A stretch of DNA of 52,991 nt, the filler included, from Bilabrum cf. latius (Eukaryota): NCBI GenBank assembly GCA_965178125.1. It is 2 parts of 2 records of this genome, joined end to end, with 100 filler letters (N's around TTAATTAATTAA, not from the genome) between each part and the next. Parts side by side here need not be neighbours in the genome. Positions count along the whole stretch, not along the records: positions 26,569 to 52,991 come from CBCXTV010000034.1; 1 more part is not named here. One strand, 5' to 3'. Both the position numbers and the translations under genes were made by a program. Below the pieces are notes generated by a model. The model did not search any database, was not told the DNA's origin, and saw nothing but the letters and a program-made list of their open reading frames with translations. Shown here piece after piece: positions 26,569-51,564 of the stretch; position 1 is the stretch's first letter, and every line of letters begins with the position of its first letter.

Positions 26569-29500
26569 CGCTCTCGGAGCTGAGGATCCGTCCCTCGACG
26601 ACCTCACGCTCTCGTCCCTCACACCCCCCGTCTCCCCAGCCGCTCCGGGATGGAGTGGTCGTCCAAGGTGGGCGGAGGAGAGCCCCCCGCGTGCCAAAGG
26701 GGCATTGACGGTGCCGCCGCCCCAGACGGTGGGAGTCGGACTCCCACAGGCCCTGGGCAAGCGCGGCAGACTCCTTCCCGCGGAGCTCAGCACTTCCTCA
26801 TCCACTCCGAAGGAGAGGAAGTCTCCGCCGGTCCCGAGCCGGACCAGGAACGGCCCCCGTCCAGGGGCCGCTCCCGGTCTCCGTCGTCTCCGCCTACGAC
26901 GTCCGACTTATCTTTGCCAGCAAGTCGCCGCTCTCGTATCGTCGCTCAGTCGTCTCGGTGCCGCTCCCAGGCACGCGGCCGCCGCGCGCGGTCGGGGTCG
27001 CGCCCCGATACCCCGCGCCCGCCGCGCCGCCATGGCGCCATGGCGCCACGACGCCTCGCGCAACGAGATCAACTGCTACGCGCTCTACAAGCAAGGCACC
27101 CGTGGATGTCACCGCGCCGGAACAGCCTCTGGGCGACGGGAGTGGTGGAAGTTGGACTTCCACACGCTCTCCCGCCCGGATGGTTGTCTTGGACGGAGGC
27201 ATCCCCACAGGAAGTGATGGCGACATGCTTGCGATAGCGGAAGATAGTCGCGCTCGAAAATTCTTGCAAAATTGTGATGATGATGGCAATTCCGACGTCG
27301 ACCTCGAGGCCGAGCTCGAGGCGATTATGCAAGAGTCCTACGACTCAGCGCTCAACGAGTTGGTCGATCCCGGCCGGAGCGCGAGCGCGCGTGATGCACC
27401 GCGACTCACCTCCCCGGAGGGCGCGCTGGTCGGCGGGAGTTGGACTCCCGTGAGACCGGACGCCCCGAAGGGAGATGGGCCGCCCCCGCGTGCGCACGTC
27501 GCGTCATCTTCGTCTTCGCTACCGCCGACTGCCTCCCCGAGTCGTCCGCCCCGATCGGCGTCGAGGACCGATCCGGCCATCTCGCGGTCGCTCCTTCGCC
27601 AAGCGATCGAGTTGTCGGTCGGTCGAGGGCTGGCAAGAGTGAAAATGATGGAATCGAATATGTGAATTTCCCGTTCCAGGGTGGCTCAATCCCCGGCGCC
27701 GATGCTAGTGGAGGTGATGCCTCCACGGATGGTATCGACGTCGGGGACAGTTCGGGCCTCCCCCATGACCATTCCGTCAGTGTCGATCCGGTGCGTGGGT
27801 GCGGGGCGCCCACCGCATCGGGTGATCAGTATCGGTTGGGTATTGATGCCCATGATTCGGCCATGGGGAACGGGAATGAATCGGCGCCAGCGGACGACGT
27901 GAATGACGTCGATCTGTCAGGAAGGAAGCGCGTGAAGATGGGAGGCGAGGGGAACGAGGGCTTGATGCAGTCCCGCGAGATCTACGCCGAGTGCGAGTCG
28001 CTCAGGCAGATGAACGTTCAAATGGAAAAGACGATCCGGGACATGCGAGAGCGCCAAGCCGAGAATGAAGAGAAATGGATGAGTTGTGAGCGGATTGCGG
28101 AGCGCAAGTACGCGCAGGTTTTGGAAGCGCACGAGGCTCTCAGCGGGCGTCTCTGTCGGACGGAGGCACTCGTTGAAGCTTCGAAGGTTCAGGCGAACCA
28201 GCAAATGGGGTATTTGGAGAAAGTAATCGAAGACCATCAGCAGCGCATGTCTCAAGTAAGGCAGGTTGAGGAAACCGCCTGCGAGATGTTGCATAGTGAG
28301 CTGCATAGTGCCAGAACGGAGTATCGTCAAGAAGTTGAGCATGCTGAGCAGTCGCGGACGAGTATGAGGAGATGGTGAAGTTGGCCGACGAACAACGTGA
28401 GTTTGCAGTCGCCCACCATAAACATAAGTATGTTGCCCTCCGCGAATCGACGGTGGTTACCATCAAAGAAGTTCGCCGAGAAGGAGGCGCAGGCTCCGCA
28501 GCGACTTCGGGCCGAGTGTCAAGTGGAGGTTGACCCCGGGGAGTCGAACCTTGAGGAGCGGATGCAGGACATGGCTGGGACGCTGGCCAACATTGAGGCT
28601 TTCGAACGGCGTGCACGCCAACAGGTCCTCTACTCTGCAGTCCGAGCTCTCCGAGGAACGGCGAAATAGTGGCGACGCGTTGATCCTGAAGAGATCGTTG
28701 GAGCAGTCGCGGCACCAGTTGGACACGTTTTCGACGGAGTTCGGCCGGTATCGCGAGGCGGAAGTCTTCATGTTACAGGAGTGCCGCCGTGAGTGTGAGG
28801 CCGCCCACCAGTACAAGACCATGTTTGATGTCGCGAGGACGTCATATCAGGGGTCGATGAAGAACAGGGACGGTCAGATCCACGACCTCAGGAAGCAGTT
28901 GCGCGACGCGGAGACTCGTGCCCATTCCGCCTTGCGTGATGCCGAGCGTGACGAGGCCAAGGCGGCCGACCGGGCTCTACATGAAAGAGTCAACGACGAA
29001 CTCATGGCCACCAGGCAGGTGTTGGAGCGCACTGAGAAAGCGTGCATCCGAGCTGACCAAGACGTGGACGATCTTCGACAAAGGCTGGCTGAACTTCAGG
29101 CGCGAGATGAGCACAAGGCATCGACGGCCAGGATGAGTTCGCCCGTTACGGTGACCCGGGCGGACGCGAGTAAGACTTGCGCAACCCTGGGTTCCGGTGC
29201 CGCGATGTCCGAGCCTTTGGCTTCTTGTTCGAATGGCCTCCCAGGCGACGCTGGGGGCGGGGTTCGGCACCCCTCCTCCGGTATCCCACAGGAAGGAGGC
29301 TATGTGCTTGGGACTGCCGCTGGTGGAGCTCGGAGCTCCACAGGTGGTGGCGTTTCCGGCCGATGAGCCAACCCCTCAGCCGAATGGTGGGCCTCCTCCG
29401 CATTCCCCCACGCCCACTGTTGCCCGTTGTGACCTCTCGGATGACGGGCGGGAGTCAGACTCCCGCGGACGTTCCGGGGGGGAATGACGGTGGGGGGGCC

Positions 29501-31126
29501 GCCCGACGGCGGAGGCGGGGGTGACGACGACCCATCGTATTGGAAGGATGAGGACGGATATGTTTGGTATCGCCTTCCCGGAGGTGGTGGACCTCCGGAT
29601 GGGGGCGGTCCCGGCGGAGGAGGGGGCGGCGATCCCGGTGACGGAGATGACGACGATGCGGATGATGAGCACCAGGATGGTGAGCCCGCTCGCCGTGGCC
29701 GATCCCGGGACAAGAAGGACAGGAAGAAGAAGAAAGAGGACAAGAAGCGAAAGAAGGGAAGTAGTAGTAGTTCCTCTTCGTCCTCCAGTTCGTCTAAGAA
29801 GTCGAACAAGCGCTCCAAGGACAACAAGTTGAAGGAGCAGAACAAGATGGAAGTGCCCCCCTATCCAGCGGTGGCCATGCTCCGCAACTACCGGGTGGAG
29901 TTGTACGAGAAGGTGTGTGCTTGTGCGCAGGACAAGGAGGAATCGGAAGTGCTCAAGTGGTTGTGCGCCGTCGAGGAGAACTCCGCGAAGTACGAGGACT
30001 TCGAGAAGCCCGGCAAGCGTTTCGCGACGCTAGACCGGAAGTTGGGGATTGCGCTCCAGGCAACCCTGACTGGCGAGGTCCTCAGGCGCGTCAAGCATCT
30101 CCGTCAGTTGGCGGCCCATGACGGAAAGTTGATGGCGGGTCGTCAGATTCTGTACGAGATCTACAAGGATCGGTCGACATCCCATACGTCGCAGAAGTTG
30201 TTCTCCGCGGGGGGAAATCACCCAGATCGACTGGTTCGGCGACGAGAACATGCAGAGATTCAAGACGGTGTGGGAAGACCGGATGAGTCATGCCATGGGG
30301 GAGATCCCCATGTGGATGAAGGCATACCAGTTGGAACGATGCATTAGGAAGTCGACTGTGTTGTCGCCGTTCTTCGTCATGTACCAACTGAACAATCCGG
30401 GGGACGTCACAGAGAACAACGCTCTTGATCGCCACACGGCTCTTATGGAGATTTTGGATACAGCTATCGAGCGTGGCCGAGAGGAGCGAAATCGGGTTCA
30501 GGCGGCGAAGTCCAACCAGACGTATCTGAACCAGATGATGGGAACGGAGAAGCAGAAGTCCGCCCACTGCTCCGGGCCCTCCGGCTGCGCCGGGAAAGGG
30601 CAAGGACAAGGGCGGTAGAGGCAAGGGCAAGGACAAGGGGCGGAAGCCATCTCCCAAGGCGCCAAACCCGGGCGGACCCGGGAAAGGGAAGGGTGGCAAG
30701 CCGTCCGGCAAGCCGAGCCTGTTGTCCAAGAACTATTGTTTTCATCATGTGTTCGATCGCTGCAACAATCCGAACTGTCAGTACGTCCACGAGATGCCCA
30801 AGACCGATGAAGAGCGCGCTGAGTTGCGGAAGAAGATGGAATACGTGAAGTCACGTTCCCCCTCGCCGGCTCGGGGTAGGCCGAAGGGGAAAGGCGGGAG
30901 AGGCAAGGACAAGGGAAAGCCTAAGGGGGCGACGTCTGCGCCGGCCTCGTCGTCGGCGGGAGGCGGATCTGAGCGCGGGAGAAGTCAGAGTCGGAAGAAG
31001 AAGAAGAAGACCAAGAAGGCCCCCGCGCACAGTCCAACTCCTCATCAGCGTCGTCCACGCCCTCGTCCACCTCTTCCCGCAAGAAGAAGAAGAAGAAGAA
31101 GAAGAGTCGGGCATCTTGACGGTTAG
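26569..31126 (+). CDS. gag: Gag-like region (frameshifted): low-complexity N-terminus, long coiled coil (~27950-29110), capsid-like core (~29830-30500), basic tail
   Basis: ORF pieces 26650, 26958, 27440, 28530, 29484, 30250 and 30722. The core reads KEQNKMEVPPYP...KWLCAVEE...FATLDRKLGIALQATLTGEVL...GKLMAGRQILYEIYK, and it lies directly upstream of the protease. Confidence 0.7.
30737..30790 (+). CDS. CCCH zinc finger at the nucleocapsid position of Gag
   Basis: CFHHVFDRCNNPNCQYVH = C-x7-C-x4-C-x3-H, flanked by GKGKGK-rich basic sequence. Confidence 0.8.
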
Positions 31127-32044
31127 CGGCGCCTGCGGTGGTGTGCCATGATGAGATGCGGAGCTTAGGGCTCCGTCTCCGTGGCATTTCCCCGCGGGTG
31201 CCGTGTGAGCCGCTGGGGTGTCCCGGCCGTCCAAAGGAAGTCCCAGTCTCGGGGTTTGTCCGGATCTCACTCCCCTGATCGTTTCTTCGATAGGGTTGAG
31301 GTTGTGATGCGTCACCTTGAGCAGTATGTCCCGTCCGGTGGGCGGGGCACATCTTCCAGCCGCTGCGGAGGTGGGACCTCCGCCCGCGGTAGGAGGAGCG
31401 GTCGTGTTCGAATCGGGAGCGAGCCGCTTGTGTATGTCTGTGATTTGGGGATGTGAGGCATCCGCAGACACGGACACTCCCGACACTCCGCCTCGTCGGA
31501 GGTCTCGTTCGCCGGGTGGAGCAAGGGCGAGGTCCCCATCTATCTCGTTTGGCTACATTCAGGTTCATGAGGTTCCGTCCGAGGTTGAGAGTGCTCGACT
31601 GCGATCGCCCAGAGGAAGGACCAAGCCATACCTCCCCCTCGACCGTTGTGCGTCTCTGCTTGACGAGCATTATTGGTCGCTGGTGCGGCAAGCCGTCGCG
31701 AGGGCTGATGCGGTGGGAGCTGCTATGAAGTTGGGACGACCAGGCCCTCACACCTGTCAGGTGGTGTGGGACAACACGGGCACGGCGTATGTCGCTCTGC
31801 CTCGTGAGAGTCATGATCCCGATTCAGGTTATCCTTTCCGTTTGTCCCGGGCGAAGGCGGTGAAGATGCTCGATGGGACGTGGAACTCATTCCATCATCT
31901 TGGCGAAGTGCCTGGCCCTCAGGAGCGAGTGCAACACGGGTCGACGTTGGGTTGGCTCGGGGCCGGCATCTGGCGTTCCCCCGATTGCGCGGCGGCTAGT
32001 CCTACGCGAGCGTCGGAAGAACTCCGGGAGTCGCTAAGGTGGAC

Positions 32045-32370
32045 AAGTGGTTGATGGATACGGGGCGTGGCTGGGATCCTGTTGGAGCCGATAACGTTGC
32101 TCATCTTCCGGGTGCCGTCGGGGAAGCTGAAGAGCAGCTGAAGTTTTGGACCGCAAACGGCGTGACGAATGCCACCAGGATGCGCTTCTTACCGTTGCTC
32201 CCTTGGGTGGGACCGTCCGCCCATTGATCATGGAGGATTCACCCGATGTGTTGTCCATTGGGAGGCGTTGCATGGATATGGGGTATTCCCTGTATTGGCA
32301 TGAGCCGTACTTCGTGCTCCCCGACGGTTCGCGTGTAACGTTTGAAGTCGAAGGGTACATCCCTTTCATG
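32045..32370 (+). CDS. pol: Retropepsin-type aspartic protease (one frameshift)
   Basis: KWLMDTG with DTG at 32057-32065, flap motif FWTANG, then in the next frame PLIMEDSPDVLSIGRRCMDMGY. Confidence 0.8.
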
Positions 32371-32688
32371 CGGTCCACCGCGGTGCCGGTGCGATGCGAT
32401 GACGATTACGGCGAGCCTTGCTTGGCGGTCCGGAGTGGGGGTTATGCCTCCATACCGGCCCTTCCGGCGGGCGACGGAGCATCCGAGGGCGATTCGCTCC
32501 CTCCCGTGGCTCCTCTTGAGGTTGGTCCAGGAGATGAGGGTGACGTTCACGGAGAAGGTGAAGGAGTTCAGATGGATGAGGTGATCGACGAGGGTGCCCC
32601 AGATGGTGGAGAGGTTGACTGGATCGGGCCCGAGGCCGATGGTCGACGGGACCTGTATAGTGTCTATGGGAGGGCCAACACGGTTGAG

Positions 32689-33560
32689 CACATGCTGTTC
32701 CATTTCCCGAAGAGCCCGTATTGCCGGATCTGTCAGGAGGCGGCTTATGCAGCGGAAGCCGAATCGTCGGCGGAAGGACTTGCCTGACCAGTACAAGGTG
32801 TTCGGTGACATGATCACCATGGATCACATCGACGCCAACGATCTGCGCAAGAACGGATTGCACGGCGAGAAGGACATGCTTATTGTGTTCGACCTGGCGA
32901 CGGCATGGATTGCAGCCTATCCTGTCATGAACAAGACCGCTGGGTGTGTTGTGTCGTCCTTGATCAACTTCCTTGGGCAAGAGAAGGCCAAGGCGTTCTA
33001 CTCCGATAAGGCCCCCGAGTTGCTGGCGGGCGTCGAGCAGTTGCCTGGTCCTCCCGTTGTTCACCGCACAAGTATACCTGGAATTCCCCAGACAAACGGG
33101 ATTGCGGAGAGTCGAGTGAAGTCCGTGATCCGGGGGGTGAGGACCAACCTGTTGCAGGCTGGGTTGCCCCATGTCTGGTGGCCGCACGCTGCACGGTGTT
33201 ATGCCGTTCACAGCAACGTTGCGGGACTCCAGGAGAACACCCCTATGCAAGCGCGGCACAAGGAGGCATTTAAGGGAGAAGTGATCCCTTCGGTGCCTTG
33301 GTGTTCGCGATGCCGAGTGGGATCAACCGGAAGCGGAACTTCAAGTTCGAGGCCGCGGCCCAGCCGGCCGTGTTCTTGGGATACGTCGTTCAGGATGGCG
33401 GGAAATGGTTCGGGGAGTATGTGTGTGCGTTCGCGTCTGACTTTGTCGATGCGTCGTTCTATTCTCGGGCCCGCTGGTCAGAGTGCCGGGTTCCCGTTCA
33501 TACTGGTCGAGAATTGCGCTTCAACTCGGCAGTGCCCGTTCAGTTCCCTTGTCGGGCTGC
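32689..33560 (+). CDS. pol: Integrase: HHCC zinc motif, DDE core, copia-type C-terminal domain
   Basis: HMLFHFPKSPYCRIC at 32689-32733; MDHID (D at 32822); FYSDKAPEL (D at 33005); PQTNGIAES (E at 33107); then KFEAAAQPAVFLGY. Confidence 0.92.
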
Positions 33561-34429
33561 CTACGAAAGGGACAACGAGACGGTGCTTGGGGTGAAGAAG
33601 TGCCTGCAGCGCGAACGTGACGCGGATGAAGGATGCGATGACGTTGGCGACCCCGATGGCTTGGGTGTCGATGGCGAGCCGGTCCCGGAACGGGAGCCAC
33701 TCCTTCGTGATGATGAGCGCCCTCCTTTCGAGGAGGATGTCGCCGACCGCGTTTGGGGAGGCCTCTCATGCGGATGAGCCGGAGGTTGTCGAGCCCTACC
33801 CGACGGAGGTGCACAAGGAGCTGCAGGAGTTGAAAGACGAGGTCGATCGTTTGGAGCACATGCTCGTGCAAATTCCTTCTGGGAGAAGGGTTCAGGGCAG
33901 AGATGTGGACCAATTTGGAAAGGTGATCATGAAGACTACCCGTCGCCTTACATCGAATCCGACGATTGGATGAGGATGAACGAGTCCACCAAGAGGTCGC
34001 TTATCGACCAGCACCAGCAGGACCTCGACATGCTGATGGGTAAGAAGGAGAGGTTGGCCATGTTGACTCACACGATTGCTGAGTACGAGCGACGGCACAC
34101 CTCCCCCGAGTTGTGTGGTGACAGGGTTACCGCAGGCTTCTCGGGTACGGGGGGTGCATCGTCCTCTTCGAGTTCTTCTGCTGTGCCTCTCTGCAGCGTG
34201 TGTGCGAGGTGCGGGTGTCAGACACCCGCGGCCTCCGGCGTGGTCGAGAGTCGCTCGGGGGGCGGATGTGAGACGTCCGCAGTCCCCGGGGGGCCCGACG
34301 TGTCCTCGGAGGACATCGCCATGCCGGTGGTTATTCCTGAGTCCATTCCCCATCGTGAGAGGAATCCCATGGTCGTTACTTCGTACTACGCCTGTACTGC
34401 TCGTGATGTGAACCACAAAGAGCGGGCAT

Positions 34430-35790
34430 GGAACGTCGAGGCGCAGAAAGCCTCAAGAAGGAGTGGGGTCGCCTTCGATCATGTGGAAATGGCGAAGGGT
34501 GTTGGGACGAGACCCGTCTCGAGAGTTCGATGATGTTCAGGCGGAGTATCGCGGGAAGAAGGTCACCGCTCATTTTGGCCGTGTCTTTGACATATGCGTC
34601 GAGAAGAACTTTCACCTGGAGAAATTGCCCAATGGAGACCTCCCTCCCGGGCGGAAATACAAGGGTCGAGCCGTCTACCAAGGAAACAACGTGAAGGATC
34701 AGGAGGGCAACTGGGCCATCTTTCAGGAGCTGGCCTCATGTCCCTCTACGATGGAGGCGTCCAAGATCGTTGACTTCTATTCCTTGTTGGAAGGTCATGT
34801 GGGCGAGCAGGCCGATGCCGACATGGCCTATACTCAGGCTCGTTTCATTGGACCTCCGACGTGGGTCGAGGTGCTTCGCGAGCAGTGGCCCGACGCGTGG
34901 GATGGTGTTGGGCGCCATCAGCCCCGCTTTCGGCGGCCGGTTTGTCGGCTTCTTCGGGCGTTGTACGGGCATCCCGATTCGGGGGGGCTTGTGGGAGAGA
35001 CATTGCGATTCTCATCTGAGGTCGATCGGGTTTCGTGAGATCGACCCGTGGCGCAGCGTCTACTTCCATGACAAATTACAGGTGCTCCTCGTTGTCTATG
35101 TCGACGACTTTAAGATGGCAGGGAAGAAATCTGCTCTCGACAAGTGCTGGGGTGAGATTAGACGGGAGTTGCGCATGGAGGATCCAGAGCCCTTCGGTCT
35201 CTTCTTGGGTTGTGCCCATGAGGTCGGGGAGGTGAAGTTGGATTCGTCCTTGCCCCCGGTGCGCACGATGACGTACAATGTCGAGGCTTACCTCCGCAAG
35301 AGCATTGACAAGTACTTGGCGGTCCTCCCTCCAGGATCCTCATTGAAGAAGGCTGCCACTCCGTTCCTGACAGTCGCGGACCCCTTTGATGTGGCGCGCC
35401 CTTCGGGCGTCGGTCACGACCCTCGGATGTGTCCGTGGTGTCGTGGTGTCTTCGACTCGTCGGAGTTTTTGCCTCCCTCGGGGAAAGTCAAGGGTAGTGG
35501 GTGTAAGACACCCGCGAAGAAATCGGGTGACGGGTGTGGGACGCCCGTGACGCTTGAGAAGCCCGCTCCCCGGGGGGTCTTGGCTGAAAAGGCAGCCAGC
35601 GTGCTGATGCAGATTCTGTACGCGGCGCGTTACGCCCGTTTCGATCTGCTCTGCGCAGTGTCCAAGTTGGCTCAGCGGATAGCCACTTGGGACGAAGATT
35701 GCGATCGCCAGATCTACCGCCTCATGTGTTACATACACTCGACGTTGAGTTGGCGGCAGGTCGGGTACGTTGGCGATCCCCTCGGGGTGG
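34430..35790 (+). CDS. pol: Copia-type reverse transcriptase (frameshifted)
   Basis: KYKGRAVYQGNNVKD, QADADMAYTQA, LLRALYGHPDSGGLW, LLVVYVDDF (YVDD at 35097-35108), FLGC and LMQILYAARYARFDL. Confidence 0.95.
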
Positions 35791-35794
35791 TCGC

Positions 35795-36605: not shown

Positions 36606-36607
<2 letters not shown>

Positions 36608-36675
36608 CCGCGCGCTTTCAATCTTTCGGTCCGACTGCTGACGTGCCGCCGAGGCCAGAATCCACCGCTCGGCGG

Positions 36676-40900: not shown

Positions 40901-43900
40901 GAACGCCGTAAAGGCGGAGCATCATAAGGAGAAGCACAAGGATTACGACGAGATGATGCTCTTGGCCCGGGAACTCGCGGCATTTGACCGGCATCTGTTG
41001 GTGATAAGCCATCACCATGATTTGTTCACTTTGGACGAGTCGTGGGCGTACCAGATGTCCGGAATGCATGTCATCGCAGATGCCGCGGGTTGCGCCACGA
41101 CAAGTGGATGGCCGATGATCTCGGGGATGTTCCCGTTCCGAAAGGGGTACTTGCATTCCAACGGGACGTTGCCGTCGCAGCATGTGACGCTCAACGAGTT
41201 CGCGGTCCTCTGCAAGATCCTCCAATTGAGCATTCCGGTCTCGATGGCGGTGGATCTGCTCCGGGTGAAGGGAGTGTCAATTCGTGACGACCCGGAGTAG
41301 AGTACGCCTTTGATGAACGGTACTCGGTGCCCGTGTCCCTGACGCATAGTGCGGTCGTCGGAGCGGGAAAAAGGACGACCGATTTCATGCCGAACGTCCC
41401 TTCGGTGGTAGGCTACAAGGCGGACGCGTACATGGCGGTCGACCCCCGGACAGGCAGGCCAGGGATGAGTAGGCGGGAATACCTGGACGCGATCAAGGTC
41501 CAAGCCTTGACCCACTACTATGAGTTGATGGTCACACGCCTGCGCGACGACGACCCGGCGATGCTCCATTTGCATCAGCACCGGAAGGACTCAGTGAGGG
41601 CGGACGTGCGGCGCCGTTTCGCTGAGCAGCGGACGTGGGTCGTCCGTGAGTTCATCGAAATGGCCCGCAGGTTCCGCGAAACGCAGAAGGAGGAGGAGCA
41701 CACGATCAAGTACAAGCGCCGTTTGTTGAGGCGGGCGGCGAAGTATTTCCTCCTGACCGGCGAGGACGGGTTCTTCACCTTCCTCGACCCGGGCATGGCG
41801 AACTTTATGGATGTGGAAGAGTCCGCCGGTCCCCCCGAGTTGGATGACGATGAATCGTTCGACGAAGACGACATTCATGCAACCATCGATGCATGGACAA
41901 CTGGGGGGCAATGGGACATTACCGTGGCACCCGTCGACAAGATCAGGGAAGTGGTCGGCGAAATGGCGAAGGAGGAGATCCAGAGGCGAGTGGCTGCGGG
42001 GTTGATGGACGCGAGGGCTCAGGACCAGCCGGGTGATGGGAGTAGGACTCCCGTGTTGCCGGTTGATCCCGAGACCTCGGCCGCCTCCCCCGCGGCGCCC
42101 AAGGATGAGCCGATGGAGGAGACGCGTGGAGGTGAGACCTCCGCCGCGCCGTCCTCCGTCGGTCCGCCCACGTCTGAGGAGGTGCCGCGTGGGAGTCAGA
42201 CTCCCACCGCGGTTCTCCCCGATGGCTCTGGTGCCTCCGCGACGGCTCCGCGCGGGAGTGAGACTCCCGCTCCGGTTGCTGGTGCGGAGGCGCCTGGCGC
42301 GCCTGGGCCCTCAGGGCCCGGGCCGACCCCCACATCAGGTCCTGAGCCGAGCGAGATGCCCGAGGCCGGCGCTCTGGGTGAGGAGGAAGCGGCGCGCGGG
42401 AGCGGGACTCTCGCTGCGTCTGCGGAGTCCAAACCCATGGATGTCGACGAGGAGGCGCCAAGTGGTGAGAACCTGCTCTCGAACTTCATGCCGGCGCCTC
42501 CGATGTGCGCGCCGCCGACGTGCATCGTTTCCAAGGACGTCGTGGACGTTGGGACGTTCGTGTGTGCGCCCTTGGGACCGTTCGGTGCTATTGACTACCA
42601 CGGTCACCCGATCCGGCCCGACGGGGCCACAGGGTCCGGGGCCAGCGTGTTGCTCATCTCCCTTGACATGAAGCACTTCGTGTTCGGCTACACGAGGAAG
42701 TCCAGGAGCACGCAAGGTCAGTATTGGACGACTTTTGGTGGCAACCGGGACAGACAGGATGACGGGCCCGTGGCTGTGGCTATGCGGGAATTCTCGGAAG
42801 AACATGGGAAAGAGTTTCCCTTGTGGGCCCATCCATGCGTTGGATACGTTTGGTCGAGGCACCATGTCACATTCGTAGTCATGTGTGATCCAGATTACGC
42901 TTGTTGGACATTCCATAGGAACAGTGAAGTGACAGAGGTCGTGCGCGTTTGCATCTTGGAAAATGTGCAATGGTCGAAATTGGTGCGTAGGGCATGCCAG
43001 AGTGCCGTGATTGCCGTGGCCTCGTTCCTCAGCGGCTCCGACCCCAAGCACAGGGAGAAGGTGCAGAAGGCGTTGGAGTTGGACCCGTGCAGCGGGATCA
43101 GTGAGTGCAGGCGCAAGTACACCAAATTCACCATGCCCTTGATCTGGATGCCGAGAGAGGCGTTGTACGGTGCTGAGCCGAAAGGGATTGGTAGTCGGCC
43201 GCTTGGGCGAGGGAGTAAGACTCCCCCAGTACCCATCGCCGGCACCGCCCTGGTGCTCATGCACGGACAGAGGGCGAGGGTGGAGGTGTGGGACGAGCCG
43301 GTGCCCAAGTTGCACGGCAGCAAGAACAGCGAGTCGCTCTTCAAGAGTATGGAGCTCGGGTTGCAGATCGCGTTGCGTCAGCCTTGGCACCCGGTGAACT
43401 CGGTGTTCGGCCCGCTCATGTCCTCGAAGGCGGCATACCCCGACGTCGTGGAGCACCGTCCATGGGTACTCATGGATACAGTGTCAGAGTATCACGCACC
43501 ATCACGCGTCGATGGCCCATTTCGACATGTACGGCCATTATAGGGAGCATGCAATGGGGTGGTCTACTGAGGTTGACGATCGCACGCGCGTGCACCCGGA
43601 CTATATCCGTGACCGGAAGAAGGGTATCATTGGCCCGAACGTCATCGACCCCACGCGCGATGAGGACGTCGACCGCATCAAGGGCCTCCCTGGAGCGTTG
43701 GGCATTGAGCGAGACGTCGAGCTCGAGGGGCGCGGGAGTCGGACTCCCGCTGCCTCTTCGGGGCCCGGTGCTGCCGCGAGTGGAAGTCAGTCGTCCACGG
43801 ACGCGCCGCGGCCTCCGACTCTCACTCAGTCCACGATTCCCCCCGTCGCTGAGGAGGTCCCTGCCGGGAGCGGGAGTCAGACTCCCGCAGGCCCGGTGGA

Positions 43901-46900
43901 GGCCTCCAGTGAGGGTGACGTTGTGGAGCCGGAAGAGGAGGCGGACTATGGTGACGCATCCTCGGTCGACCCCATGACGGCTGCCCTTAAGGTCTCATTC
44001 AGGGGTACGTCGCACTTGGCCGAGAAGCAGGACCTCCTATCGTTTCCCTACGCCACCGAGGTGGAGTACATATATGGTGGTTGTAGGACGGGTGCGGAGA
44101 TGGCGGCGATCACCATGGCGGCGTATCTGAACCTCAATCGTGGGGGTTACGCCCCTGCTTGGGGGGACGACGCGTTCCGAATTGGTGGTTACATGCCGGG
44201 CACGCACGGGCTTTCGACGGTGCATCCGTCGGTCCCGGACGCCGAGAAGGAGGTGGCCGCGTGGCGGAAGACGCTCGAGAAGTGCGACGGCGTGCTGATT
44301 TTCTGCTGGGCTACCATGAGTGACGAATTGCTTGAGTTGTGGTACATGGCCCAACATGATTATAAGCGGCATACTAAGGTGATAGATGTGTCGGCAGGTC
44401 GAAAGCACATGGTCGGTACCATCTGCGAGTGGTGTAATGAGTACCATGTCAAACGTTTGTGGATTACCGGCGAAACAGAGGACGAACTTGCCCATCCGAT
44501 GTGGCGGCCGCTGGCATATTATCTCATCGACGAGTTCAAGCCCACTGCGGAGAACTACACGATTGAGCCGGACCGAGATTACGACCAGGACCGGACAACC
44601 TTGCCGAAGGAGCTCAACGATGTGATCCACAGGGGCGATGTCTTCTACTCCCTCGACAGGGACGAGGAGGCTCCGACGACCACGATGGGTGACGGCGGAG
44701 GTCAGACCTCCGCAGACCCCATCGAGGTCGATGAGGCGATGCCGGACGCGGAGGGCGAGGCTGGCGAGAGTGGGACTCTCGCGAAGGCCACGTTCCTGCG
44801 TCCGGACACCGCCAAGCGCGCCGGACTAGAGCTTGAAGAGGATCGAGGCGACGATTTCACCCAAGTGATCGATTCACTCCCACCAGAGCATCGCGAGCGC
44901 ATTCATCGCCTTCTTCAAGTCGAGGCCGCGTTGGGCGCCGACGTCATCGTCAGTCTTCATCGGGCCGATAGCCTTTCGGCTGCGGACGTGGCTTATGCCA
45001 GCTGGACGTCCGTGATCGCCCTGATGGAGAAGGAAGACGTGGAAGCTGCCGGGGAGTCGAAGATCTACTTGGAGAACTTGAGGAGAAAGGTTGATTCGAT
45101 CATGGAGGCTCGGTCTGAGCCCAAGGCAGCGTCATCTCACGGAGCGAGGGCCGCGATGGAGCAGCAGGACGATGAGGAAGAAGATCCGTCGCTCAAGGTG
45201 CCCGCGCCCGAGGAGTTGGCAGATGCCCAGTTCGCCACGGCCGGGCTCTCGTCATTGGCGGCGCAGGCCCGTATCATTGAGGCGGGCAAGGAGGCAGCTT
45301 CGTCGGACGTTGCGCAGATTGACAAGCCGTCCGACAAGACCACGGTCACGATCGAAGATCTGTCGGGCTGCGTTCTCCCCGGGAATCAGGCGAGATTGGA
45401 CCAGTACTTGCAGCAGAATCCCGAGGGGATGCCGCAACTGGAGCATGAGCCGCTCGACAAGAAGGCTGAGGAGCACGTGATCGGGGACGAAGACGAAGCT
45501 CCCGGACCGCCGGGGCCACCCACGGGCACCTTTGCCTCGGAGGTTCCGACCTACGCGGCGGGTGGCGTTGGGCCGGCGGTGTCGACCATGGGTTCGGAAG
45601 ACCCGACTTTCCCGGGAGGTATGGTGGGGCCTTCCCTCTCCACTGTGGGATCGGAGGTACTCCTTCTCCCGGGGCAGTTGGTCGGGAGTCGCTCCGGCCC
45701 TTATGTGCCGGAGTCGTCCGGCACTGAGGAGCCCGGGGCCCAGGCGGAGGCCGTCGTCGGCGGGCCCGGGCCTTCCAGCGGAAGTTTGACTTCCGCAGGA
45801 TTGCTTGGGACCCGATATAGCGACTCGGTTCCGCCTGGCGCGACGGAGATGCTCGGAGAGGAGCGTGGTGGAGGTAGGACCTCCGCAGCGCACCTCGAAG
45901 AGGTCGCCGGTGAGTTGGAGCAGCAGGATGTCGCGATGGACGTGGATGAAGACCTCTCCCCGAAGGATGCGACGTCCAAGTCAATGGCTAAGGCTCTGAA
46001 CAAAATCGGCCCGCGTTTCAAGGGCACCGCCGAGGGTGCGGCTCGCCGTACGTTGTCGATGACTGACAGGTCTACGCGCGTCGATCCGGTATCAGCCTGG
46101 CACAAACTCACCTCTCAGCATGATCAGTCAGGAGAGGCTTTGCCCATCTTTCCGCCGGACGTCATAGCCAGGATTCTGCGCCAACCCCCCGCTGCGGGCG
46201 CGGCGTCTTCCTACTCCCAGGCGGTCCGCGGAGGTCAGACCTCCGCAGTGGCTGCCGCGGCCGTCCCCGTTGGTGGGAGTCGGACTCCCGCAGACGTGGA
46301 AGTCAAGGAGGAGGAGGATGACGAGCCTACGATTGATCAGCAGGAGTTTGCGCGGCGTATCGCTGTTGGGGCTGCCGCGCATCCGCAGATCGACTTGTCG
46401 AAGGAGATGTCCAGGAAGGAGAAGAGACAGGTGGCAAGGGCGAACGTTCTGGCGTTGAGGGCAAGAAGAGATGAAGAGATTGCAGTAGCCGCCCAGATCC
46501 TGCAAGAACAGCAGTCCCAGGCGTCGATCCAAGGGGATGCGAGGGTTGTCGTGTCGGGCGTTGGACGCCCGAGTGACGAGCAATACCTCCATATCCCGGA
46601 GATCAGCGCTCAGGGCAGCTGGGCGCAGAGCGTCGATGAGCTCAAGGAGTTGTTGGCGGACTGGTGCGGCGACGACGTGGGCGCGAGGGATCCGGCCTGC
46701 AAGGTCATTACTCCAGAGATGAGGAAGCTCCGAAACGGACAGCGCATTGTTCCGGATACCCTCAAGCTGAAGCCCCTCACGAGCCTGATGGTTGTGACGG
46801 GCAACCGTGGTGGCTCGTTCGTGACCGAGTATTTTGCCAACTATCGGCAAGAGGAGAGTGATCTGCGTAAGCACATCAACCAGGCGAGGCATCACGCGAG

Positions 46901-49900
46901 GAACCCGAACACGAGGTTCTCGAATGCTTACAACGACATCTCCAGGACGCTCGGGGCGTGGTTGCGCCACACAGGCCTCAACCATGTCAGTGGCCCTATC
47001 ACCCGCGATCAGCCCGGTTTGTCAATGGACACCGGGGGATGGGCGCCGTGGGGCACAGTGGTCAGGCGGCTGCACCAGCTGCTGGCGGATGGCTACAACA
47101 CAGCAGGATGCAAGAGAATGACCACGTCGGCCGTCCGTTTCGTGATCACGGAGAACGTCGTCTTGGCGACCATCCTCGCGTTGGATGTGAAGGGTCGGTT
47201 CCAATTGGCCTTCTGCAAGGATCCGCACAACGAAATCGAGATCCGGGGAGTCAGAGCGGTCCAGGGGCACAGTTTGATGTTCATCGATGAGGCGCGTTTG
47301 GCCTATTGCCCCGCTGGTGCCGCGGCGTTGAAGCAGACGATCAAGGAGCTCTGGCATGGCACCAAGCAGGACAGCCTGATGGGCATTTTGGCCAACGGAT
47401 TGATCCCCGGAGGAAGCGATGGTCGTATCAGAAGGAATTGCGTCCACATCTCACCGGTTCATCCCTGGATGGAAGGAGCTGAGCACACCAACCGCTCCAA
47501 CTCCGACTGCTTTGTTCGCATTGACGTGGACAAGTTGTACCAGCGCGTCCCAGTGCAGCACATCTTTCAGTCGGCGAATGGGACGGTGTTGGTTCGGGAC
47601 GCGGTTCCGGTGTCATGCTTCAAGGAGATCGTTTACCAGAACGGCCCCGGGGATTACCAGGTTGTGTGGAGCGCCTCCCGTGTCGGACAGGCGCCAAGTG
47701 TGGTCGTCCCGTCCGCCGGGGGCATGCGCGATCACTCCGGTGGTGCGGTTCAAGCCGCCCGTCGGTGGGCCAGCGGGAGTCGGACTCCCGCAGGGTCTGC
47801 TGCGGGCGGCGGTGGGAGTCAGACACCCATGCAGGAACCGCCTACCGTGGGGATCTCGCTCGACGTGGACTTGGACATTGCAGGTCGCGTTACCTTTCAT
47901 TGCCCTGTGTGTGAGAGTGTTTGCTTCGCAGGGGCGTGTTTTTGTTTCTCGTGTCGATCCAGGTTCTACTATGAGGACGAGGCCCACAAGCTCCGGCCGA
48001 TGGCGGCAGGCGTCGCGGTGCCGAGGGCCAGCCCGGAGACGCTGGCGCTGCTCAAGGAGGCCCGAGGAGAGCTAGGTCTTGGTCGAGGACGATCCGCGGG
48101 AAGCAACATGTGGCGTGACATCAAGCGTGGTAAAAGGTTAGGAGAGGAATGGCGTGGCCCAGGTTGGCAGAACCCGGAAGCGATAGAACGCATTCAAAAT
48201 GCAGCAAAGAAGGGCGGTGTGCCATTTACGTGGTCTGCGGGACGTTGCGACCCTTGGACTCCGACGAGTGAGCATTCGCGGCCGGACTCGCAGATCACCC
48301 TCACGCCTCGTGACTTCGTGTACGCGGTGTTGAGTATGATGGGCGGCCCATACACAGACGACCCGGATTCGCTGACCGGTGACGCCGCGGTGAAGCGCAC
48401 GAATGCCGTCACGTTCATCAACATCGTGAGTGTGTTGGGCACCGATGTGCTTTGGGAGATCATGCGCGACGAGACGATCTCGGCCGACGCAGTGTTTTTG
48501 GGTATTTACAATACCATTAGAGATATTCCCCAGATTGAGGAGAGTGTCATTCAAGTATTGGGGAATACCGTCGACCGCGAGGACTTTGCGTTTGCGCTGA
48601 ACTTCACACGCCGCGAGGTCGCCTAGTGGGGCGCCATTGTTGACCCTCAGAAGGGTCATCTTGCCCGCGACGCGCCGGTTGGGACCAGCGAGAGCAAGGC
48701 AGCGGCTCTGGCCAAGGGCCATGCCATCACCACTGCCGTTGGGAAGGCGAGACGGGCGACGCCGCCTCCCAAGCCGGCGGGCCCGACGACGGCCAAGGCC
48801 GCGAAGAGGAGTGGGAGTAGGACTTCCATGACGCCTCCCGCGCCGAAGGCCCGTCCGTCCGGCTCGCCGGGTCCAGGCGCTGGCCCAAAGGGGCAAGGCA
48901 AAGGTGGCGGGGGTAAGGCTCCCACCGCGCGCGACGCAACCTGAGAAGGGGCCGGGACGCGGAAGTCAGACTTCCGCAGCGCCCGCTAAGCCCATCTCTC
49001 AGCCCGCGCACAAGGGTAAGAGTACCGGTCGCGGAGGTAAGGCCTCCGTCGAGCCGGACCCTATCCCGCCATGGAGAGCCCAAAGCGGCAAGTCGATCGG
49101 TCGCGGGAGTCAGGCTCCCGTGAGGCCGGAAGCGTCCTTCACTTTGGCGAAAGGGGGCGGAAAGGCCTCGGAGCGTGGAGGTAGGACCTCCACACCTCCG
49201 ACGGCTCAGCCGCTCCCCCACTGCCAGCAAGTCTGGTGGAACGGGTAGCGGGAGCGGCACCCCTCCACCACCGCCCTGGGCCTCGAGCCGGGGCGGACCA
49301 CCGCAACGCGTGTGGGTCCCAAAGGGGTCCGCAGCGGCACCGGCCTCTGGCACGATGCCGCCTCCTCCGCCCACGACAACGATACCGTTTTCGAGTCCTC
49401 CGGCTGGCCAGACAGCATCTACGGGAACGCCCGCAAAGTCTAAGGCTTCAACACCTCCGCCGTTGAGAGGTTCGGTTGCTCGCGACCCGTTGATCACTCA
49501 GGACCCTCCGTCGCAATCGCACTTACCTGAGACCCGTGGAAGTCAGACTTCCACAAGGCCCAGGCAAGACGAGGAGACGGGTAGAGCTAGGGAGTCTAGG
49601 GCGCAGGAGCGCAGGTCTTCGCCGAGATCGCGATCGGGAACTGGAGCTACACGAAGCGAGGCGAGACCACCTTCGGCACCGACTGCGAGTTCACGGGGTG
49701 AAGAGCGGCGCCATGAGTCTTCAGGGCAATCTAGGCCCAGTGAGCATCGACCACGTTCACAACATGGTGAATCGTCGACGAGTCGCCAGCCTCGCCGTAC
49801 CCTCGCGACTCGGGCGATCGTCGTTCTTCCCGAGACGACGAACCCCGTCGAGGGCGACGCCGATCTCCTACTCCAAGGGAATCGGAGCGTCGCCGCCGCC

Positions 49901-50460
49901 GATCTCCCTCTCCACGGGAATCTGGCGGCACGCGCCGGCGCCGTGACGAGGACCCTCGGGAGCGTGGAAGTCGGACTTCCGCTGCTCCGCAGGGTGATCG
50001 TCCGGCGCCGAGCGCGGCGTCTTGGCTGGATCGAGGTCGCGACTCTCCCATGCGCGGTCCAGGCCGGGGTGCCAGCGCCCCTTCCGTGGCAAAGGCGCCA
50101 CCGCCGCCTCCGCCTCCAGAGCGAGCGGCATCCGCCTCTTCGCGTCACTCTCACGATTCGCCCTATCCAAGGGAACCTCGTCCGCGTCGAGACGCCGATT
50201 CTCCGGCCGACGACCGGACCCGATCTCGGAGGGCGTCGGGGGCAACGCAGGGCGGTGGGCGTCAGACGCACGCAGCTCCGCGGGACCCGCCTACGGCCTC
50301 AGAGCGACCCGAGGATCGCGGGAGTAGGACTTCCGCACGTCCTCAGGGGAGTTCGACTGTTGCCGGGGACCAGGGCCCTTCCCGCGCGCGCGATAGCACA
50401 CGCCATGGCGATCCTTCGTCGACGTCGCGTCGCTGGGGCGCTGAACGCCGCGGCGGCTGA
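37977..50460 (+). CDS. Giant cargo coding region (~4,100 codons) broken by two in-frame stops (38415, 48624) and several frameshifts
   Basis: Consecutive ORFs 37977-38417, 38418-41300, 41327-43543 and 43512-48626, then 48627-50460 in pieces. Protein-like sequence continues across every junction, and the G-S-x-T-P hairpin peptide stays in phase. The final TGA is at 50458-50460. Confidence 0.75.
38781..39025 (+). CDS. PDZ-like domain
   Basis: IIFDARPVGFAI (GLGF-loop equivalent) ... WRVIGLVAGGQADRYGVEEGWEIKAI, matching V..V..G..A...G...GD.I..I. Confidence 0.65.
40610..41230 (+). CDS. SGNH/GDSL hydrolase-like domain
   Basis: Block I IHLFGDS (GDS at 40626-40634), block II HTVGGSDI, block III IVIYNGNA, block V KGYLH (H at 41154). 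The usual Asp of DxxH is not evident. Confidence 0.5.
42635..43030 (+). CDS. Nudix hydrolase domain
   Basis: ASVLLIS..FVFG..WTTFGGNRDRQDDGPVAVAMREFSEEHG = G-x6-D-x7-RE-x2-EE-x-G at 42740-42808, against the canonical GX5EX7REUXEEXGU. NSEVTEV follows downstream. Confidence 0.85.
44058..44535 (+). CDS. SLOG-superfamily domain (putative MoCo-carrier / circularly permuted YpsA type)
   Basis: IYGGCRTGAEMAA..GGYAP..RKTLEKCDGVLIF..KVIDV..ICEW...VKRLWITGETE parallels the family pattern ISGGQTGADRAA..GGW.P..RT..NV.DSDGTLI..KP.L.ID..I..W...LNVAGPRES, recalled from memory. Confidence 0.72.
46935..47635 (+). CDS. kptA: Tpt1/KptA NAD+-dependent RNA 2'-phosphotransferase domain
   Basis: ISRTLGAWLRH, GLSMDTGGW, DVKGRFQL, VRAVQGHS, LWHGT..ILANGL.PG, RNCVHIS, VRID and QSANGTVLVRDAVPVSCF. 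The catalytic Arg-His-Arg-Arg tetrad is present. Confidence 0.93.
47901..47954 (+). CDS. Zinc ribbon after Tpt1
   Basis: CPVC-x10-CFSC. Confidence 0.65.
49560..50460 (+). CDS. Arg/Ser-rich disordered C-terminal tail of the cargo protein
   Basis: ERRSSPRSRS, RRGRRRSPTPRESERRRRRSPSPRES ... RRWGAERRGG-stop. Confidence 0.55.
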
Positions 50461-51003
50461 CGGCGATGTCATTATTCCGCTGTTGGCCGCCCAGGTGCAG
50501 CCGTTCGCCGTCGTCGGCGGGCACACCTTTTGCGTAGCGAGGAGGACTACCCAGACACGGAGTTTTACATCGATTGGTGATCGGTGGGATGGGGGGCTCT
50601 GCCTGGTGTCGTTGAGCCCAGGCATCCCCGTGCATTGTATAGGCTGAGCCGTATGCTCAGCGTTCTCCCGTGCTTGCGGTGTGCGTGTCCCCTCTTGTCT
50701 TGTGGTGCGCGGCGCAGTCGATCAGGTCTTTTTAGAGGCGAGGGCTTGCCGGCTTGGCGCTCGTCATGGCCGCCCGGGCAGATCGGTGGAAGCAGTCTTT
50801 CCCGCCGACTGTCCGGGCAGGCCGCCTCCCGAAGTGCCCTCGTCTCTCCCCGGGACACTACCCGGACCGGCATTAGTTCTGGCCGCCCGGCTAGCCATGT
50901 GGAGCCTTGATGCCCACCTCTGGCCCGGGCGTGCCGCCGTCTGGAGTAGCTGTTCCCGGGGGCTGCCCGAGACCCCGCAGCGGACTTGCTCGGGGCGGGC
51001 AGC

Positions 51004-51013
51004 GGGGAGGGGA
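51004..51013 (+). promoter_or_regulatory. Polypurine tract (plus-strand primer)
   Basis: GGGGAGGGGA immediately followed by TG, ~550 nt after the last stop codon. Confidence 0.6.
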
Positions 51014-51564
51014 TGACTCCATTCCCCCTCCCCGGGTCGGTCGCGCTCGCGCGTGTGTGGTGTATAGCGCTCGTCTTCGTCGCCTTCTATTTTGATGGAG
51101 GTCGGTAGTCGGGGCACCCTCGTCTTTTTGGCATGCTCTGTGCCTTGCCGTGAGAGTTGGACTCCCACCGCGGGCCAGACGTGCCAACGGGGGGTGTTTC
51201 TCGTTTGCCCCGATAACCGGACAGTATTCCTCCAAGTAGGTTGCACCTAGGACAGTAGCATGCATGCGCATAGCGGATCCGTAGTCCTTTTGGTCTTTTC
51301 GGAAAACAGTGTTCCGCGCATCGCACACTCGCTCGCGCTCGTCGCGTCGTGGGCCCTGTTCCCTGGCCCTTTGCCCGGCTACGGCCGGGCCAGTCCCGGG
51401 GCCCAGGGCACCACGTGCCCCAGGGCTGTGAGACTATCCAAGGGTGGTCCTGGAGGTTTGGGTCCAGGATCCCCTGCCCCGGACCAGAGTGGTCCGGGCT
51501 ACAGTGAGCCCCGGCCCCAGGGTGGCCGGGCACCTACCCATTCGCAGGGGTCTTCCCATTCGCA
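51014..51564 (+). mobile_element. Candidate LTR (551 bp, TG...CA) shared between the two tandem elements
   Basis: Begins TG directly after the PPT and ends CA directly before the PBS. No second LTR copy is in the window to confirm the boundaries. Confidence 0.6.
51278..51293 (+). promoter_or_regulatory. Dinoflagellate spliced-leader-like motif inside the LTR
   Basis: TCCGTAGTCCTTTTGG matches DinoSL DCCGTAGCCATTTTGG(CTCAAG) at 14 of 16 positions, ungapped. Confidence 0.45.

Follow-up and report, generated by a model that had tools for sequence, protein, structure and literature searches.

A triloop hairpin repeated in frame along a 24.5-kb retroelement-like unit of Bilabrum cf. latius: evidence for a selected sense-strand RNA structure

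Results

We analysed a stretch of 52,991 nucleotides from Bilabrum cf. latius (assembly GCA_965178125.1), hereafter the window, along the whole of which positions are counted. It contains a coding-dense, retroelement-like unit, element 1, on the plus strand at 26581-51168, the left end of which is hidden by N runs. A small triloop hairpin is written 57 times into this unit, and it recurs in a diverged tandem copy that follows, of which the window includes the 5′ part (copy 2, 51635-52991, plus strand, at an offset of about 25067). The two arms of the hairpin covary, departures from Watson-Crick pairing are nearly all of the G-T kind, and the fold is the same in both copies, where loop and peptide differ. 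We conclude that the hairpins are, very probably, a selected sense-strand RNA structure of element 1. The fuller statement, that they are selected RNA hairpins and also function as element-specific protein-binding sites, perhaps for packaging, is put forward more tentatively, as a serious possibility. The evidence is drawn from one 24.5-kb copy and 1.39 kb of the second one.

A hairpin family confined, within the window, to element 1 and its tandem copy

The part common to all hairpins is an apex of 19 nt, composed of an 8-bp stem and a triloop (NRG in element 1); the invariants of the apical stem are G1, G3, G4 and G7, plus their partners. The catalogue comprises 57 apices in element 1, all on the plus strand between 26729 and 51168 (2.3 per kb over 24.4 kb), and 5 more in copy 2. 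A preliminary description of this DNA had noticed the hairpins and put their number at about 45, a slight undercount. The exact motif GCGGNNGTNNGACNNCCGC was matched 28 times, always within 29448-50336, for an expectation of 0.01 from shuffles; these matches are 17 plus-strand sites, of which 11 also read on the minus strand because they are perfect palindromes. A strand-symmetric scan (NNGG....CCNN around a triloop, with no more than one of the 8 pairs departing from Watson-Crick) returned 44 sites in 26569-51250, 22 of them perfect, 6 sites past 51250, and 2 unrelated-looking sites upstream (1-26468). With a covariance model seeded with 14 sites, and matches counted at E≤1, 77 matches were obtained, 76 of which lie at 26713-52897 and one, marginal (E 0.99), at 5958. 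Its 23 minus-strand matches all overlie plus-strand matches, and 22 of them score lower. Sixteen relaxed members of the catalogue were picked by their likeness to the palindromic motif, G-T and A-C departures being treated alike.

Apart from the two unrelated scan sites and the marginal model match, neither the scan nor the covariance model detected the family in the upstream 26.4 kb. This agrees with the earlier remark that no hairpin was seen in 1-26468, and in this upstream sequence the motif is not as abundant as in the element. Equal abundance outside the element had been named as an outcome that would speak against a selected RNA hairpin. Rfam gave no match in the window at gathering score. 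An exact-hairpin pattern scan of metagenome contigs found 120 loci with one match site each, and since none has two motif copies we take them as chance matches in GC-rich DNA. The exact hairpin was not found in viral contigs, and no published account of hairpins repeated in frame along a retrotransposon came to light in the literature, supplements not covered.

Folding of 51-nt windows showed that the apex mostly continues into a lower stem of 4 to 9 bp, the whole hairpin measuring about 50 nt and its helix about 20 bp. The motif as first described therefore stands for the apex and falls short of the complete unit, which has a lower stem and a bulge on its 3′ side. At the junction between apex and lower stem, 0 to 1 base is unpaired on the 5′ side and 1 to 3, mostly A, on the 3′ side. 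Of the 62 loci, 45 have a clear lower stem; in 32 of these the surplus of unpaired bases, typically one or two, belongs to the 3′ side, in 4 it belongs to the 5′ side, and in 9 the two sides are equal. The position directly outside the apex is never Watson-Crick paired (0 of 41 apices, compared to 19% expected from the marginal frequencies), and the base 3′ of the apical stem is A in 22 of these 41.

Native 51-nt folds have a mean energy of −27.4 kcal/mol, versus −13.4 for control windows taken from the same frames. When the 3′ flank was swapped between loci the mean became −22.3 kcal/mol, an average loss of 5.1 kcal/mol; the native fold beat the swapped one in 51 of 57 loci (p = 2.6×10−9), and in 37 of the 43 loci outside the model seeds (p = 4×10−8). 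The lower stems are unrelated between loci, for instance CCGGAG/CTCCGG at 39220 and GCAGAGC/GCTCTGC at 39466. Being independent, they make each locus its own test of pairing.

The arms covary, and not by duplication

In the 62 aligned apices, 484 of the 496 stem cells pair (97.6%), compared to 85.3 +/− 0.8% in shuffles, none of 500 reaching the observed value. Two-sided changes are present at 7 of the 8 apical pairs, and cells with a double change number 76, for 22 +/− 7 in shuffles. Sliding the partner by 1 to 3 columns brought pairing down to 38-56%. The variable and covarying pairs are 2-18, 5-15 and 6-14, and every arm pair quoted in the preliminary description was found again (AGT/ACT, GGT/ACC, TGT/ACA, CGT/ACG, GCT/AGC, GGG/CCC, GGA/TCC and GAG/CTC). 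Its claim that the arms covary is thus borne out.

Segmental duplication could have produced such a pattern and was ruled out as its source by the flanks: over 30 nt they are at least 60% alike in a single one of 1596 locus pairs (39220 and 39352), with a mean identity of 31%. Covariation therefore persists once duplication is corrected for, the flanks being unrelated in 1595 of 1596 locus pairs.

Departures from Watson-Crick pairing point to the sense strand

The 496 apical pairs of the 62 apices consist of 440 Watson-Crick pairs, 44 G-T, 4 A-C and 8 other mismatches, so that the earlier statement that non-Watson-Crick pairs are nearly all G-T is accurate. In the strand-symmetric set, 22 single departures were counted, of which 20 were G-T, 1 A-C and 1 other.

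Decay of CpG dinucleotides had to be considered here, as the codon phase places the C of both stem CpGs at a third codon position. There, a C>T change produces a G-U pair and is silent, whereas G>A produces A-C and alters the residue; the excess of T-G at pair 2-18 (18 cells) could for this reason reflect synonymous CpG decay. Once this pair is dropped, 26 G-T remain for 2 A-C (p = 3×10−6), which answers the comparison with CpG decay that had been called for. The remaining pairs escape this confound: either kind of mismatch can result from silent changes at 5-15, 6-14 and 8-12, and at pair 1-19 both routes alter the residue. On the transcribed strand the stem tolerates G-U, and does not tolerate A-C. 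Pair 2-18 itself (29 C-G, 18 T-G, 12 T-A, and 2 of the A-C kind) displays the classical route through a G-U intermediate.

A strand-biased mutation process was ruled out as the source of the G-T excess, the two transition classes being nearly equal when the window is compared to other copies. Going from window to read, T>C plus G>A changes were found at 989, 1150, 1222 and 1139 places in four runs, and A>G plus C>T changes at 945, 1100, 1198 and 1128. The ratios are 1.01 to 1.05 in all four runs, without strand bias. The one-sided 3′ bulge is a second strand-specific feature. Since the plus strand is the coding strand, the selected object is most simply the sense RNA, as the preliminary description had supposed; its proposal of selection on a sense-strand hairpin has now come through the controls for duplication, CpG decay, abundance in the 26.4 kb upstream of the element and strand bias.

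The fold is kept in a diverged second copy

Copy 2 is 69% identical to 26581-27527 over 972 columns (blastn). All five hairpins of element 1 that lie in the alignable 1.39 kb have a homologous hairpin in copy 2. The 40 apical pairs compared show 7 two-sided changes (A-T to G-C twice, A-T to T-A once, T-A to C-G four times) and 10 one-sided changes, each of them between Watson-Crick and G-U. All 80 stem cells stay paired in spite of differences at 24 of the 80 stem positions; the stems thus evolve about as fast as their surroundings, the changes being restricted to those that preserve the fold. The extended folds, of −31 to −44 kcal/mol, have likewise been preserved through changes in the lower stems.

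The peptides are not kept: GGSRTPT, for instance, becomes CGGQAPA, and GGSWTPV becomes RGCQASA. The loops differ in concert, reading CGG, TGG, TGG, GAT and GGG in element 1 and CAA, CAA, CAA, CAT and CAA in copy 2, and the closing pair goes from T-A in element 1 to C-G in copy 2 in 3 of the 5 hairpins.

Coding phase, codon use and placement in linkers

The centre of the palindrome is the middle base of a codon, so that third positions pair with first positions and second with second. Every base pair therefore couples a silent with a replacement position, or two second codon positions, and in 5 of the 8 pairs a replacement position in one arm is mirrored by a silent third position in the other. 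The single codon phase announced earlier holds for 35 of the 44 scan sites, which read in step with the longest frame around them; the remaining sites are mostly found where the frames of this copy are broken. It fails for hairpin 46554, clearly out of phase, and for hairpin 31158, which carries an in-phase stop. The constant phase may come from descent from one ancestral module, or from a requirement that the imposed peptide, Gly-Ser/Gly-x-Thr-Pro/Ser-Ala, be harmless.

Codon use indicates that the constraint is at the nucleotide rather than at the peptide level. The third loop position is G in 38 of 41 apices, where the encoded residue is R, Q, W, G, E, K or L, compared to 41.6% of codons ending in G elsewhere in the three long frames (p = 7×10−12); the second loop position is a purine in 40 of 41. 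The arms use ACT and AGT, which elsewhere account for 19 of 186 Thr codons and 33 of 223 Ser codons respectively, and the base after the stem makes GCA, elsewhere used for 38 of 355 Ala codons (10.7%). These rare codons serve to keep the hairpin fold.

Within 20 residues of a hairpin, the content in P, S, G, A and T is 46-63%, versus 32-38% elsewhere, and hydrophobic residues make up 12-21%, versus 30-34%. Among the 14 longest hairpin-free intervals, of 794 to 2745 nt, are those that hold the integrase-like frame, the stretch resembling RVT_2 and the match to Tpt1; stretches read by eye as RNase-H-like, GDS-motif and Nudix-like fall in other hairpin-free intervals. The hairpins had been said to cluster in linkers and to avoid the integrase, SGNH and Tpt1 cores. 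The linkers and the integrase-like and Tpt1 stretches conform to this, and only the SGNH label is not confirmed, no Pfam match to SGNH having been found.

Interpretation and rival explanations

Several points weigh against a selected RNA signal or against its proposed use. A pure RNA signal does not predict a constant codon phase, which suggests rather common descent by copying, or an added constraint on the peptide. Coding may hold part of the stem conservation, since the conserved stem positions also encode Gly. In the lower stems, G-T and A-C pairs number 12 and 8 by a crude ungapped count, a difference that is not significant. The plus-strand preference of the covariance model is not independent evidence, the model having been trained on plus-strand sequences. 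The loop contrast comes from one other copy only, of which 1.39 kb with 5 hairpins could be compared. The candidate reader of the hairpins is a weak one, as the CCCH finger and the other Gag/Pol matches are sub-threshold. Finally, no direct repeat flanks 26581-51168 and neither copy shows a pair of long terminal repeats (LTRs), N runs hiding the left edge of element 1 in this search; the stretch 50300-51634 has no second occurrence in the window.

A fixed loop, stem length and bulge would not follow from stability alone, from which we infer a reader protein; a loop that is not the same in related copies would be left unexplained by a conserved host factor, and the reader is thus more likely to be encoded by the element. 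The hairpins would then be repeated binding sites for an element-encoded protein, the Gag-like CCCH protein being the obvious candidate, and the sites could mark and condense a very long RNA for particle assembly. The suggestion in the preliminary description of packaging or compaction by way of the Gag CCCH finger is plausible, and the element-specific loop speaks for it indirectly. Copia-type RNAs are usually four to five times shorter than that of the element. Differences in the loop might let each sub-lineage recognise its own RNA. In its strongest form, this proposal is one of a private hairpin code, in which the loops of sub-lineages (NRG, CAA) co-evolve with an element-encoded reader that packages and discriminates an RNA of about 25 kb; we consider this form rather doubtful.

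An unlikely alternative, though the strongest of the rivals, is translational punctuation, in which stable folds at domain boundaries slow the ribosome for folding or processing of a polyprotein. The hairpins do occupy linkers that separate hairpin-free intervals of domain size (794-2745 nt), they have one codon phase in common, and their folds are very stable (a mean of −27 kcal/mol, for −13 in control windows). Their location in linkers is, however, equally explained by the tolerance of such regions to the imposed peptide, and pausing would need stability only, leaving the sequence-specific loop, the fixed stem positions, the 8-bp apex and the one-sided bulge without a reason. The concerted loop switch between the two copies is not explained either, and hairpins are also present where the frames are broken, one of them (51150) past the last long frame.

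Of slightly lower probability is a by-product at the DNA level without RNA function, that is, a tiny in-frame mobile palindrome of the Rickettsia kind, or correction of quasi-palindromes by template switching in replication or reverse transcription, a process that generates inverted repeats, restores their perfection and makes them extend outwards. The constant codon phase and the near-identity of the 19-nt apex give the hairpins the look of copies of one sequence, many apices are perfect palindromes readable on both strands, and template switching has been reported to produce and preserve hairpins that show apparent compensatory changes (10.1101/2021.04.15.439925). Such a process does not account for 44 G-T against 4 A-C, given transitions without strand bias, nor for a bulge kept on one side (32 loci to 4). 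It would tend to erase bulges and lengthen the stem, and yet none of 41 apices pairs at the next position out. The lower stems are unique to each locus, and therefore were not inserted along with the apex, and the 5 positions that could be compared over 1.39 kb are all occupied in both copies, without presence/absence polymorphism. Some of the double changes may nonetheless have arisen by template switching, with selection acting on the result.

We give the same low probability to processing or recombination sites, at which the RNA would be cut by an endonuclease and re-sealed (by way of the Tpt1, SLOG and Nudix-like module), diced into small RNAs, or would cause the reverse transcriptase to pause and switch template along a 25-kb RNA. 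Tpt1-type enzymes finish RNA ligation, and element 1 does encode such an RNA 2′-phosphotransferase; with the lower stem the helix is about 20 bp long, and several joints in the contigs of other copies end a few bases from a hairpin. Joints at short repeats, in short contigs mapped at 80% likeness, can nevertheless be artefacts. The 7-nt loop consensus of the IRE1 type does not fit the loop of the element hairpin, and the reading frame, continuous through every hairpin, argues against excision.

That the peptide was selected, as a Ser/Thr-Pro phosphorylation site or a protease site in linkers, with a merely incidental palindromy, is very improbable. The single shared codon phase and the motif Gly-Ser-x-Thr-Pro-Ala, with its Thr-Pro pair in disordered linkers, would suit it. 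A motif selected for its peptide alone is largely refuted by codon use, by the cross-arm tracking and by the change of peptide in copy 2: a silent third position follows a replacement position across the arms in 5 of 8 pairs, rare codons are preferred, the third loop base is fixed while its amino acid varies, copy 2 reads Gly-Gly-Gln-Ala-Pro-Ala with the fold kept, and the flanks pair too.

Stimulation of −1 ribosomal frameshifting, for which the many changes of frame in the gag-pol part of this copy could be quoted, was tried and rejected with hardly any probability left to it, since an XXXYYYZ heptamer occurs within 40 nt upstream of 3 of 57 hairpins only (at −16, −23 and −24), and of none at 5-9 nt, and since other copies differ in length near some of the places where the frame changes.

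Comparison with known systems

Dispersed packaging signals are known in single-stranded RNA (ssRNA) viruses such as MS2, satellite tobacco necrosis virus and parechovirus, and in the pregenome of hepatitis B virus. As described in PMC6281560, these packaging-signal hairpins are the closest analogue of the element 1 hairpins in working principle. Both consist of tens of small stem-loops spread over a genome, coding regions included (57 over 24.4 kb here), and both combine a short common loop motif, N-R-G in our case, with variable stems. The viral signals are read by the capsid protein, whereas the element 1 reader is a putative one. The host differs, being here a retrotransposon-like element of about 24.5 kb; the stems of the element are far more uniform, with fixed positions and one codon phase in linkers, and each of its hairpins has a lower stem and a one-sided bulge.

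In geometry, the element hairpins come closest to the coat-protein operators of RNA phages, in which a short stem with a triloop likewise has an unpaired A next to it, the whole being the unit that the protein recognises; that of Q-beta has a stem of 8 bp, a bulged A and a loop of 3 nt. Unlike the element hairpins, phage operators are single in each genome, have their bulge within the stem and obey no coding-phase rule.

Regarding the host, yeast Ty1 is closest. The GAG coding region of this copia-type element holds cis-acting RNA structures, and PMC3592414 and PMC5454406 describe folds for packaging, dimerisation and priming inside coding sequence. As described there, Ty1 has one complex domain at its 5′ end, whereas element 1 repeats a single motif more than 50 times throughout.

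Two further systems resemble the hairpins at the DNA level. Rickettsia palindromic elements are selfish in-frame insertions of 100-150 bp that have spread into many unrelated genes, and they too are palindromes inside coding genes, in tolerant parts of the proteins. In element 1, by contrast, only the 19-nt apex is common and the lower stems are local, the 5 comparable positions are all present in both copies, and the mismatch spectrum points to RNA. In template-switch hairpins (10.1101/2021.04.15.439925), a single step changes both sides of a pair and so can mimic compensatory evolution. Template switching predicts no bias of G-U over A-C, no kept one-sided bulge and no fixed stem length.

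RNA folds in coding sequences are usually single and hard to prove, whereas one motif is found here almost sixty times in a transcript. Because the lower stems are independent, each site is a separate replicate of the same selective test. RNA structure and protein sequence share the same bases, which makes this a clean case: as the base pairs couple codon positions, the fold dictates both the use of rare codons and the linker peptide. If protein does bind at the hairpins, this would account for the way in which a retroelement several times the usual size handles its RNA, and would offer a packaging specificity that diverges between sub-lineages of a transposon. Should the hairpin code be true, virus assembly mediated by packaging signals would have its counterpart in a retrotransposon, set down within the coding sequence itself. 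Material for testing exists, since sequencing runs that bear the names of four organisms contain the family in many copies.

Positions of the hairpins

All hairpins are on the plus strand and are given here as the limits of their apices. The eight pairs are all Watson-Crick at 26729-26747 (loop cgg; homologue 51781) and 27145-27163 (loop tgg; homologue 52212), at 29323-29341, where pair 7-13 is switched to C-G, and at 29448-29466, 31365-31383, 34211-34229 and 39133-39151. The same is true at 39220-39238 and 39466-39484, the two loci whose lower stems were quoted above, then at 39766-39784, 42189-42207, 42252-42270, 43732-43750, 43870-43888, 44695-44713 and 44764-44782, the last with pair 4-16 switched to A-T and a peptide that reads Glu...Leu. 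Further perfect apices are 45778-45796 (loop ttg), 46228-46246, 46554-46572, whose codon phase differs from that of the 1742-aa frame, 47773-47791, which has the most stable 51-nt fold (−39.2 kcal/mol), 48959-48977, 49175-49193 and 49536-49554.

Seven Watson-Crick pairs and one G-U are found at 27433-27451 (loop tgg; homologue 52500), 27708-27726 (loop gat; homologue 52776), 27795-27813 (loop ggg; homologue 52863), 34262-34280, 35497-35515, 35530-35548 (pair 1-19 switched to A-T), 36436-36454, 37789-37807 and 37936-37954. This class continues with 39352-39370, the only locus with flanks that resemble those of another (39220), with 39859-39877 and 39994-40012 (both with loop tac), 42036-42054 (pair 1-19 A-T), 42126-42144, 45868-45886, 46273-46291, 49964-49982 and 50318-50336.

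Six Watson-Crick pairs are combined with two G-U at 31158-31176, where the loop tag is the in-phase stop, and at 37717-37735, 48811-48829, 49031-49049 and 49103-49121; for the latter, most other copies read A at 49114, which would make pair 8-12 Watson-Crick. Six are combined with one G-U and one mismatch at 31447-31465, 36385-36403 and 41629-41647, and in the degenerate apices 40364-40382, 47812-47830 and 50255-50273; another degenerate apex, 43780-43798, has six and two mismatches. A-C pairs are present at 42396-42414 (6 Watson-Crick, 1 G-U, 1 A-C), 48907-48925 (5 Watson-Crick, 2 G-U, 1 A-C), 43209-43227 and 51150-51168 (7 Watson-Crick and 1 A-C each), the latter being the last hairpin of element 1, past the last long frame.

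The copy 2 apices are 51781-51799 (loop caa; homologue of 26729), 52212-52230 (caa; of 27145), 52500-52518 (caa; of 27433), 52776-52794 (cat; of 27708) and 52863-52881 (caa; of 27795).

Four apices at 48959-49193, beginning with 48959, are spaced by exactly 72 nt and form a tandem array of 24 codons with diverged flanks; hairpins 48811 and 48907 are just upstream of it.

The host element and its surroundings

The gag-pol part of element 1 (26581-38417) is split over many frames, and the accessory part keeps frames of 960, 751 and 1742 codons. Motifs of the DTG, DDE, YVDD and DADF types, read by eye, follow each other in the order expected for a copia element, the pol domain matches being sub-threshold. 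A basic, Gag-like frame contains a CCCH zinc-finger-like stretch at 30743-30793 (plus strand; Pfam zf-CCCH_12, E 0.014, sub-threshold). The integrase-like frame, at 32585-33592 on the plus strand, is without hairpins; it matches integrase chains of the PDB at E 0.04-0.05, SH3_retrovirus reaches a sub-threshold Pfam E of 0.051, and its Atlas neighbours carry gag_pre-integrs, rve and SH3_retrovirus. A protein search with this frame gave 2 proteins, of which P0001 is 73% identical, and the frame was not found in viral contigs. A reverse-transcriptase-like frame of the copia type, with two hairpins in its tail, lies at 34695-35837 (plus strand; RVT_2, E 0.026, sub-threshold, with a YVDD-type motif by eye). 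These assignments of Gag, integrase and reverse transcriptase are weak, as they stand below threshold.

The accessory region (38418-48623) has three long frames, all on the plus strand. The 960-aa frame (38418-41297) contains 7 in-phase linker hairpins and a C-terminal GDS-type motif, the 751-aa frame (41288-43540) 6 in-phase hairpins, and the 1742-aa frame (43398-48623) 11. Within the latter, at 46935-47597 on the plus strand, is a Tpt1/KptA RNA 2′-phosphotransferase domain without hairpins (PF01885, E 1.5×10−12; PDB 7yw4, E 4.5×10−5), by sequence the sole firm domain match of element 1. The region also includes a cpYpsA SLOG stretch, with a Pfam match just under the cut-off, the GDS motif, and a Nudix-box-like stretch around 42700, read by eye and without Pfam match. 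As a set, this looks like a module for NAD/ADP-ribose or RNA-end processing carried by a retroelement.

At normal thresholds, Pfam gave nothing on the element frames beyond Tpt1 and the weak SLOG match, and the PDB sequence search nothing beyond Tpt1 and the weak integrase matches. SGNH had no Pfam match, its label coming solely from the GDS-type motif read by eye. The annotation is less secure than first stated, being firm for Tpt1, sub-threshold for Gag, integrase and reverse transcriptase, and unconfirmed for SGNH; the LTR up to which the hairpins were said to extend is likewise unconfirmed, no LTR pair having been found. Metagenome contigs scanned at the protein level with the Tpt1 region contained no relative, and a protein search with the 751-aa frame gave no match in the near-length range. 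The 960-aa frame gave 15 short fragments, and its GDS-type motif, LFGDSTTIL, is conserved in the distant fragments P0008-P0013. The distant relative P0009 is 35% identical to residues 645-789 of this frame and has a linker with GSGSSAA three times; these repeats may be another flavour of in-frame hairpin.

The family is abundant, with 86,734 contigs on 20 kb at ≥80% likeness in one run, and the runs labelled as four organisms contain it in highly repeated form. Other copies differ in length from the window at about a dozen listed places. Their contigs show several joints of distant parts near hairpins, for example at 42270, 43730, 43866, 43889, 47768 and 50342, which may result from recombination or template switching at the repeated apex, or may be a mapping artefact.

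Between element 1 and copy 2 lies a spacer of about 1 kb (50650-51634), unique and apparently non-coding. It contains a perfect hairpin at 51479-51497, CCGGACCA gag TGGTCCGG, of 9 bp with the flanking C-G pair included, which is outside the hairpin family. Two N runs (26469-26512 and 26525-26568), 44 bases each and 12 apart, come directly before the first base that aligns with copy 2. Farther upstream, an unrelated repeat unit of about 1-2 kb is present at 1224-2907, 21715-23828 and 25401-26468 (85-89% identity), and copies that have diverged further occupy 3544-5898 and 24048-24963; the repeat has no family hairpins and no Pfam match.

The G+C content of the window is 62%. GC skew is about +0.04 to +0.16 in all but one of the 2-kb bins of 28001-50000, which fits one long coding strand, and is near zero or negative upstream. 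A G-rich run at 36556-36616 encodes about 12 glycines in one frame, and was marked as a skipped repeat in the read mapping.

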